Below, piece by piece: positions 34,026-36,653 of a stretch of 64,000 nucleotides of DNA. Under the pieces are notes generated by a model that saw nothing but the letters and a program-made list of their open reading frames with translations, ran no database searches and was not told the DNA's origin. The translations under genes and the position numbers were made by a program. The stretch lies in the NCBI RefSeq assembly GCF_056746865.1, contig NZ_CM163382.1; one strand, 5' to 3'. Every line of letters starts with the position of its first letter. Positions within the stretch are counted from its first letter, which is position 1.

Positions 34026-36653
34026 TTATTCTTCTTCTGGCTCGTCGTCAACGTCCACTTCCGGAGCGATTTCATCGTCCCCTTCCGCGGCACTGCCGTC
34101 GATGGTATCCAGATCTTCCTCGTCAACCGGTTCAGCAACACGTTGCAGACCCACTACGTTTTCATCTTCCGCAGTACGGATGAGGATCACGCCCTGGGTG
34201 TTACGGCCCACGATGCTGATTTCCGAAACGCGAGTACGTACCAGCGTACCGGCATCGGTGATCATCATGATCTGGTCGCAGTCATCTACCTGCACCGCGC
34301 CAACCACTAAACCGTTACGTTCGGTAACCTTGATGGAGATAACCCCTTTCGTCGCACGCGACTTAGTCGGGTATTCCGCCACTGCGGTACGTTTACCATA
34401 ACCGTTCTGCGTTGCGGTGAGGATTGCGCCATCGCCACGAGGCACGATCAGAGAGACGACTTTATCGCCTTCGCCTAAACGAATACCGCGAACACCGGTG
34501 GTGTTGCAGCCCATCGCACGGACAGAAGACTCTTTAAAGCGCACCACTTTACCTTCGGCGGAGAACAGCATTACTTCGTCTTCGCCGCTGGTCAGGTCAA
34601 CGCCGATCAGCTCATCGCCTTCAACAAGTTTGATCGCCACTTTACCGGCGGTACGCAGACGGTTGAACTCGGTGAGGACAGTTTTCTTCACGGTACCGTT
34701 AGCGGTCGCCATGAAGACTTTCACGCCCTCTTCAAACTCGGTCACCGGCAGGATGGCAGTGATTCGTTCGTCCTGCTCCAGCGGCAGCAGGTTGACGATC
34801 GGACGACCGCGCGCGCCACGAGTGGCTTCCGGCAACTGATAGACTTTCATCGAATAGACGCGACCACGGCTGGAGAAGCACAGAATATGGTCGTGGGTGT
34901 TCGCCACCAGCAGTCGGTCGATAAAGTCTTCTTCTTTAATACGTGCGGCAGATTTACCTTTCCCGCCACGACGCTGCGCTTCGTATTCAGAAAGCGGCTG
35001 ATACTTCACGTAGCCCTGGTGAGAGAGCGTCACGACCACATCTTCCTGAGTGATCAGATCTTCCAGGTTGATGTCGGCGCTGTTGGCGGTGATTTCAGTG
35101 CGACGTTTGTCACCGAACTGTTCACGAACCAGTTCCAGCTCTTCGCGGATCACTTCCATCAGACGATCGGCACTGCCAAGAATACGCAGCAGTTCTGCGA
35201 TCTGATCCAGCAGCTCTTTGTATTCGTCGAGCAGTTTTTCATGCTCAAGGCCGGTCAGTTTCTGCAAACGCAGATCCAGAATCGCCTGAGCTTGCTGTTC
35301 GGTCAGGTAGTACAGACCATCACGCACACCGAACTCTGGCTCCAGCCATTCCGGACGCGCAGCATCGTCGCCCGCACGTTCCAGCATGGCGGCAACGTTG
35401 CCCAGCTGCCACGGATTAGCAACCAGCGCAGTTTTCGCTTCTGCAGGCGTCGGCGCATGACGGATCAGTTCGATGATCGGGTCGATGTTCGCCAGCGCCA
35501 CGGCTAATGCTTCAAGGATATGAGCACGATCGCGAGCTTTACGCAGTTCGAAAATAGTACGACGGGTCACCACTTCACGGCGGTGACGAACAAACGCCGC
35601 GATGATGTCTTTCAGGTTCATGATCTTCGGCTGACCATGGTGCAATGCCACCATGTTGATACCGAAAGAAACCTGCAACTGGGTCTGGGAGTAGAGGTTG
35701 TTAAGCACAACTTCACCGACCGCGTCGCGTTTCACTTCAATCACGATGCGCATACCGTCTTTGTCAGACTCGTCACGCAGCGCGCTGATGCCTTCCACGC
35801 GTTTTTCTTTTACCAGTTCCGCAATCTTCTCGATCAGGCGCGCTTTGTTTACCTGATACGGAATTTCGTGGACGATAATGGTTTCACGTCCGGTTTTTGC
35901 GTCAACTTCCACTTCGGCACGGGCGCGGATATATACCTTGCCACGACCGGTACGGTAAGCTTCTTCAATACCGCGACGACCGTTAATGATTGCCGCCGTC
36001 GGGAAGTCCGGCCCCGGGATGTGTTCCATCAGCCCTTCAATGCTGATGTCTTCATCATCGATATACGCCAGACAACCGTTGATGACTTCCGTCAGGTTGT
36101 GCGGCGGGATGTTGGTTGCCATACCTACGGCGATACCGGAAGAACCGTTCACCAGCAGGTTAGGAATTTTGGTTGGCATGACGTCGGGAATTTTTTCCGT
36201 GCCGTCATAGTTATCAACGAAATCGACCGTCTCTTTTTCGAGATCGGCCATCAGTTCATGGGCAATTTTCGCCAGACGGATTTCCGTATAACGCATTGCC
36301 GCCGCAGAGTCGCCGTCGATGGAACCGAAGTTACCCTGACCGTCTACCAGCATGTAACGCAGCGAGAATGGCTGCGCCATACGGACGATCGTGTTATAAA
36401 CCGCCAAGTCACCATGGGGATGGTATTTACCGATTACGTCACCAACGACACGGGCAGATTTTTTATAGGCTTTGTTCCAGTCATTGCCTAGTACGTTCAT
36501 GGCGTAAAGTACGCGACGGTGTACCGGCTTCAGGCCATCTCGGACATCCGGCAGCGCACGGCCAACAATGACCGACATCGCATAATCCAGATAGGAGCTC
36601 TTCAGCTCTTCCTCAATGTTGACCGGTGTAATTTCTCTCGCAAGGTCGCTCAT
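34026..36653 (-). CDS. gyrA: DNA gyrase subunit A (875 aa), allele with S83L and D87N
   Basis: Translation [47 protein letters not shown]...; QRDR reads [13 protein letters not shown] (codon 83 TTG, codon 87 AAC). Confidence 0.97.

Follow-up and report, generated by a model that had tools for sequence, protein, structure and literature searches.

Introduction

Quinolones bind the cleavage complex of gyrase with DNA, in which a water-Mg2+ bridge connects the C3/C4 keto-acid of the drug to a conserved serine and an acidic residue. In the gyrase A subunit, GyrA, Ser83 and Asp87 both lie on helix 4. These are the residues replaced in the canonical Escherichia coli allele GyrA S83L + D87N, which is found in many lineages and arises through the codon changes TCG>TTG and GAC>AAC. 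[quoted passage not shown]

The resistance conferred by these changes has been determined in isogenic derivatives of MG1655, for which the wild-type ciprofloxacin MIC of 0.016 µg/ml was raised to 0.38 µg/ml by gyrA S83L and to 0.25 µg/ml by gyrA D87N, while the two together gave 0.38 µg/ml, the same value as S83L alone (Marcusson et al., 2009; PMC2714960). In the same strain set gyrA S83L with parC S80I reached 1 µg/ml and the triple combination of gyrA S83L + D87N with parC S80I reached 32 µg/ml; parC S80I left the MIC unaffected on its own, and no fitness cost was measurable in the triple mutant (PMC2714960). ParC S80I, which occurs with or without E84V, is the homologous substitution in topoisomerase IV; it lies in a different gene, and is needed along with the gyrA pair for the 32 µg/ml level (PMC2714960).

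Two further systems lead to a comparable outcome by other routes. Plasmid-mediated resistance (Qnr, AAC(6')-Ib-cr, QepA/OqxAB) also lowers quinolone susceptibility, but does so by target protection, drug modification or efflux, and through acquired genes. In ST1193, an extraintestinal pathogenic E. coli lineage, homologous recombination brought in the QRDR alleles, and the outcome is a gyrA double mutant that also has parC/parE mutations. ST69, also called 'clonal group A', belongs to phylogroup D. ST69 isolates with a wild-type QRDR have been reported, and qnrS1 was found in isolates of this kind (PMC13203681). Here we analyze the gyrA gene of a 64,000-bp stretch of DNA (hereafter the window), in which the residues, the codon changes and the expected mechanism are those of the canonical allele and the backbone alone differs, being ST69-type.

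Results

The window carries an intact gyrA with two QRDR substitutions

The window is a segment of the E. coli chromosome that runs from napA to yfaZ over 64 kb; the coordinates of the gyrA features and of selected flanking genes are collected in Table 1. The assignment of the gene as gyrA is supported by its protein family membership, with a score of 1305.9 bits for the whole protein against TIGR01063, the NCBIfam gyrA equivalog (cutoff 877), and a score of 578 bits for the same protein against parC_Gneg TIGR01062, below that model's own cutoff of 628.9. The Pfam architecture places PF00521 at residues 32-507 and six PF03989 repeats at residues 538-839, corresponding to an N-terminal breakage-reunion domain and a six-bladed C-terminal beta-pinwheel, and residues 1-518 match E. 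coli gyrase structures including 3NUH, 2Y3P and 6RKS. The gene order yfaA-gyrA-ubiG-yfaL is that of K-12 and is likewise annotated in the complete genome CFSAN061770; there, and in the genome EC31, the matching gene is annotated gyrA with the protein accession WP_001281227.1. Since Tyr122 and the GyrA box are both intact and no domain is missing, the gyrase is predicted to remain functional.

Table 1. Positions of the gyrA features and of selected flanking genes in the window.
Feature	Position	Strand	Remarks
gyrA CDS, DNA gyrase subunit A	34026..36653	minus	ORF of 875 aa plus stop, 2628 nt
QRDR, codons 67-106	36336..36455	minus	same as K-12 except for residues 83 and 87
Codon 83	36405..36407	minus	TTG = Leu (K-12 TCG = Ser); C>T at window 36406
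Codon 87	36393..36395	minus	AAC = Asn (K-12 GAC = Asp); G>A at window 36395
Codon 122, catalytic tyrosine	36288..36290	minus	AAMRYTE; intact
GyrA box QRRGGKG, residues 560-566	34956..34976	minus	intact
Codon 678	34620..34622	minus	GAA = Glu (K-12 GAC = Asp); C-terminal domain, outside QRDR
MFS transporter	46680-47870
LysR regulator	48022-48900
Frameshifted ORF	49366-50436
TnpB/InsQ gene	60927-62135	minus	in place of rhmD/yfaX
Truncated IS200/IS605 tnpA	62143-62568		in place of rhmD/yfaX

The reference for gyrA was K-12 MG1655 (NC_000913.3, 2336793-2339420). Both genes are 2628 nt long and were compared without gaps, giving 51 nucleotide differences (98.06% identity, 1.9% divergence) that comprise 48 synonymously different codons and three amino-acid changes, S83L, D87N and D678E. 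The original prediction was that this gene is gyrA with S83L and D87N, and each of its coordinates and codons proved correct in the K-12 alignment, which shows no gaps over 875 residues and places the two codons at positions 83 and 87; the plus strand at 36393-36407 reads GTTATAAACCGCCAA. D678E is absent from the differences between the window and MS14387, an ST69 genome of quinolone wild type; it thus belongs to the backbone, and we take it as a lineage polymorphism. We hold with high confidence that the window gyrA, a chromosomal gene for DNA gyrase subunit A, is a fluoroquinolone-resistance allele of the target-site type. This is a textbook allele that is already known, and it says nothing new about gyrase or quinolone resistance.

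The chromosomal background is of ST69 type

The nearest relative of the window is CFSAN061770 (NZ_CP023142.1), isolated from raw-milk cheese in Egypt, which we take to be ST69 and for which a literature search gave unrelated mentions only. It is collinear with the window and differs at 2 SNPs in 64,000 bp, both synonymous: position 5639 (yojI codon 70, CTA>CTG) and position 56386 (glpC codon 48, CTG>CTA). Over 24000-48900 the meat-duck genome EC31 from China is identical to the window, and these two genomes account for the perfect matches to that segment among 5,426 complete E. coli genomes. For 45000-64000 the best 25 matches listed all scored 35083 bits, a single mismatch below a perfect score, so the source is closely related to these genomes but is none of them.

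Two further genomes share this background with other gyrA states. MS14387, an ST69 O17:H18 strain from a human bloodstream infection (PMC10024524), differs from the window over 24000-48900 (24,901 bp) at positions 36395 and 36406 only, and its QRDR is wild type, with TCG at codon 83 and GAC at codon 87. The gyrA of NMBU-W13E19, from surface water in Norway, differs from that of the window at nucleotide 259 only, which corresponds to S83L with a wild-type D87. Sampling within a group of 135 genomes with this type of gyrA thus gave three versions of the ST69-type backbone: wild type (MS14387), S83L (NMBU-W13E19) and S83L + D87N. The seven Achtman MLST loci (adk, fumC, gyrB, icd, mdh, purA and recA) were sought in the 64-kb window and none lies within it; the backbone is assigned as ST69-type from its near-identity to the documented ST69 strain MS14387 (2/24,901 bp). 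That the source is not K-12-like, as had been supposed, agrees with the 1.9% divergence of its gyrA, its different gene content and its ST69-type backbone.

The double mutant is common, and this gyrA allele is rare

The frequency of the QRDR states was determined with 34-nt exact strings that allow for either synonymous form of codon 85, in 5,426 complete RefSeq E. coli genomes. The wild-type combination of S83 and D87 was present in 2,679 genomes (49%), L83 only in 490 (9%), and L83 with N87 in 1,701 (31%); the remaining genomes, ~10%, have other substitutions or other synonymous variants within the probe. The L83 + N87 double mutant is among the commonest non-wild-type features of sequenced E. 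coli. When the whole gene is considered, identity to the window gyrA reaches 99% or more in just 135 of 5,425 matching records, and nine independent complete genomes are identical to it over the full 2628 nt. Genomes with the identical allele were isolated from raw-milk cheese, meat duck, chicken, black kites, seawater and humans. One plasmid-labelled record in the E. coli genome collection contains a full-length gyrA with the L83/N87 QRDR, and a plasmid-labelled record, the same or another, matches parC; a mislabelled chromosomal contig seems the likeliest explanation.

Topoisomerase IV alleles in related genomes

The window does not extend to parC and parE, nor to marR, acrR and any plasmid quinolone-resistance genes; parC and parE were read in CFSAN061770 and EC31. 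The ParC protein of CFSAN061770 is identical to that of K-12 at 751 of 752 residues, the single change being S80I with a wild-type E84, and its ParE has D596E only, outside the known hot spots. EC31 likewise has ParC S80I with a wild-type E84, together with ParE S458A, and in the wild-type ST69 strain MS14387 ParC is wild type. By analogy, if the source of the window is like CFSAN061770 and EC31, it would probably have the triple-mutant genotype and be resistant to ciprofloxacin.

The parE-parC surroundings were compared over 728000-765000 in CFSAN061770, 795000-835000 in EC31 and 735000-784999 in MS14387. Although identical around gyrA, the three are 0.75-2% apart over the 20-37 kb around parC-parE. 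Relative to K-12, the parE-parC region diverges by 0.7-2% in MS14387 and by 1.6-2.1% in CFSAN061770; in EC31, an 11.5-kb parE-parC tract matches K-12 at 99.89% identity, and two of its four mismatches are the resistance SNPs. The gyrA locus of the window is 2.7-3.9% divergent from K-12. The parC region of CFSAN061770 has a TonB-dependent receptor/ABC cluster and is without mqsRA, unlike those of EC31 and MS14387.

The parC gene itself was tried as a lineage marker and rejected as too conserved, the MS14387 allele being found as a perfect match in 48 genomes, including IAI39, CE10 and VR50, and at 99% identity or above in 3,897 records. The SNP density in the regions flanking parC was informative on lineage where parC alone was not.

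EC31 fits a route of import because its K-12-like parE-parC tract carries S80I and S458A, which is reminiscent of ST1193. ST1193 and the window differ in that no imported tract is seen at the window gyrA, the flanks of which are those of wild-type ST69. The sequence comparisons suggest that the topoisomerase IV resistance alleles of the relatives came on recombined tracts and that gyrA mutated in place.

The gyrA substitutions appear to have arisen by point mutation

MS14387 differs from the window at the two resistance positions only over 24,901 bp, which argues that the pair arose by point mutation; we conclude that S83L and D87N originated on an ST69-type chromosome without import. The three-state pattern of the ST69-type backbone fits stepwise de novo point mutation. 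Each of the two changes is a transition of a single base (C>T and G>A). S83L was likely acquired before D87N, because genomes with S83L only exist on the ST69-type backbone; this likely order rests on the intermediates and on published work, with no dated phylogeny.

A different origin would be homologous recombination with a second fluoroquinolone-resistant lineage that donated its resistant gyrA allele, as in ST1193. Recombination is indeed seen at the other target locus, where the parE-parC tract of EC31 is nearly identical to K-12 and other ST69-type genomes diverge from K-12 by 0.7-2%. At gyrA, on the other hand, a foreign tract would have brought linked synonymous SNPs, given the 51 sites that separate the gene from K-12, and none is present: the 24,901 bp around gyrA are those of wild-type ST69 apart from the two resistance bases. 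This makes import from another lineage very improbable. Import from another ST69 strain is the sole case in which a donor tract would be indistinguishable from mutation.

The two bases might also be errors of sequencing or assembly, or neutral lineage polymorphisms with no link to drug selection. For an error there is nothing specific to cite, although the two private synonymous SNPs relative to the nearest genome show that small differences exist. Sequencing error, which the original prediction had named as a way in which it could fail, is excluded by the nine independent complete genomes that share the identical 2628-nt gyrA and by the QRDR string common to 1,701 genomes, and both changes are exactly the canonical resistance transitions; we consider the probability of an error to be negligible. 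Neutrality can appeal to D678E, which looks like just such a polymorphism, but the same backbone is found as wild type and as single mutant, and the sole two SNPs in 24.9 kb both fall at drug-contact residues, where the chance that two random SNPs would land on exactly 36395 and 36406 is ~3e-9. The MIC rise of 16- to 24-fold for each single change in isogenic constructs (PMC2714960) is a further argument against neutrality, which we find scarcely credible. Point mutation of an ST69-type gyrA at two drug-contact residues remains our preferred account.

Other features of the window

Several regions of the window differ from K-12 independently of gyrA. Between yfaV and yfaY (60927-62568), where K-12 has rhmD and yfaX, encoding L-rhamnonate dehydratase and its regulator, the window has two transposon-related genes (Table 1), and the L-rhamnonate locus appears to be disrupted in this lineage. 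The interval between inaA and glpQ (46680-50436) holds extra genes, the K-12 counterpart being a yfaH pseudogene remnant only. The alpha-2-macroglobulin gene yfaS (27031-31650) is an intact ORF of 1539 amino acids, with the K-12 copy annotated as a pseudogene and the CFSAN061770 copy annotated at 4515 nt. The autotransporter gene yfaL (37583-41296, minus strand) encodes 1237 amino acids as compared with 1250 in K-12 (3753 nt by annotation), and a proline-rich repeat linker of PDPT type probably accounts for the difference in length. No plasmid-mediated quinolone resistance genes are annotated within the 64-kb window.

The GlpT protein (51738-53096, minus strand) differs from that of K-12 by L297F, T348N, E443Q, Q444E and E448K. 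GlpT E448K is treated as a fosfomycin marker by resistance-gene callers and has been reported in ST69 isolates (PMC13203681); in the window it looks like a lineage polymorphism.

Discussion

[quoted passage not shown] The level of resistance that follows is a separate matter. From the isogenic MICs, at which the gyrA pair gives 0.38 µg/ml and the pair with parC S80I gives 32 µg/ml, the pair is necessary but not sufficient for high-level resistance, and its effect shows only when topoisomerase IV is protected as well. The original prediction, which described the pair as a determinant of high-level fluoroquinolone resistance, was thus right about the gyrA resistance allele and went too far on the level, which needs parC S80I (PMC2714960).

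The same prediction held that the pair marks a clinically selected lineage as opposed to a K-12-like laboratory strain. The contrast with K-12 stands. The rest requires revision: the same backbone occurs as wild type or with S83L only, so the pair marks a sub-clone and not a lineage, and clinical selection is too specific a reading for an allele that is found in identical form in cheese, poultry, wild birds, seawater and humans. Selection by quinolones used in veterinary practice or agriculture is no less plausible than selection in the clinic. The window gyrA differs from the canonical S83L + D87N alleles of other lineages in its backbone, with the 48 synonymous codons and D678E that set it apart from K-12. 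We raise as a tentative and rather doubtful possibility that the source belongs to one or more fluoroquinolone-resistant sub-clones of ST69, a lineage that is usually quinolone-susceptible. Such sub-clones would circulate in humans, poultry and wild birds as well as in dairy food and seawater, and would have gained their resistance by de novo gyrA mutations combined with recombinational import of parC/parE resistance alleles from other phylogroups.

The practical value of the finding is a genotype-to-phenotype call. Judged from its gyrA, the source is almost certainly resistant to nalidixic acid and less susceptible to fluoroquinolones; if it has the parC S80I of its relatives, it is probably clinically resistant to ciprofloxacin. 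ST69 is common among community uropathogens and is often susceptible to quinolones; the comparisons show that fluoroquinolone-resistant members of this lineage occur in food and food animals as well as in wildlife.
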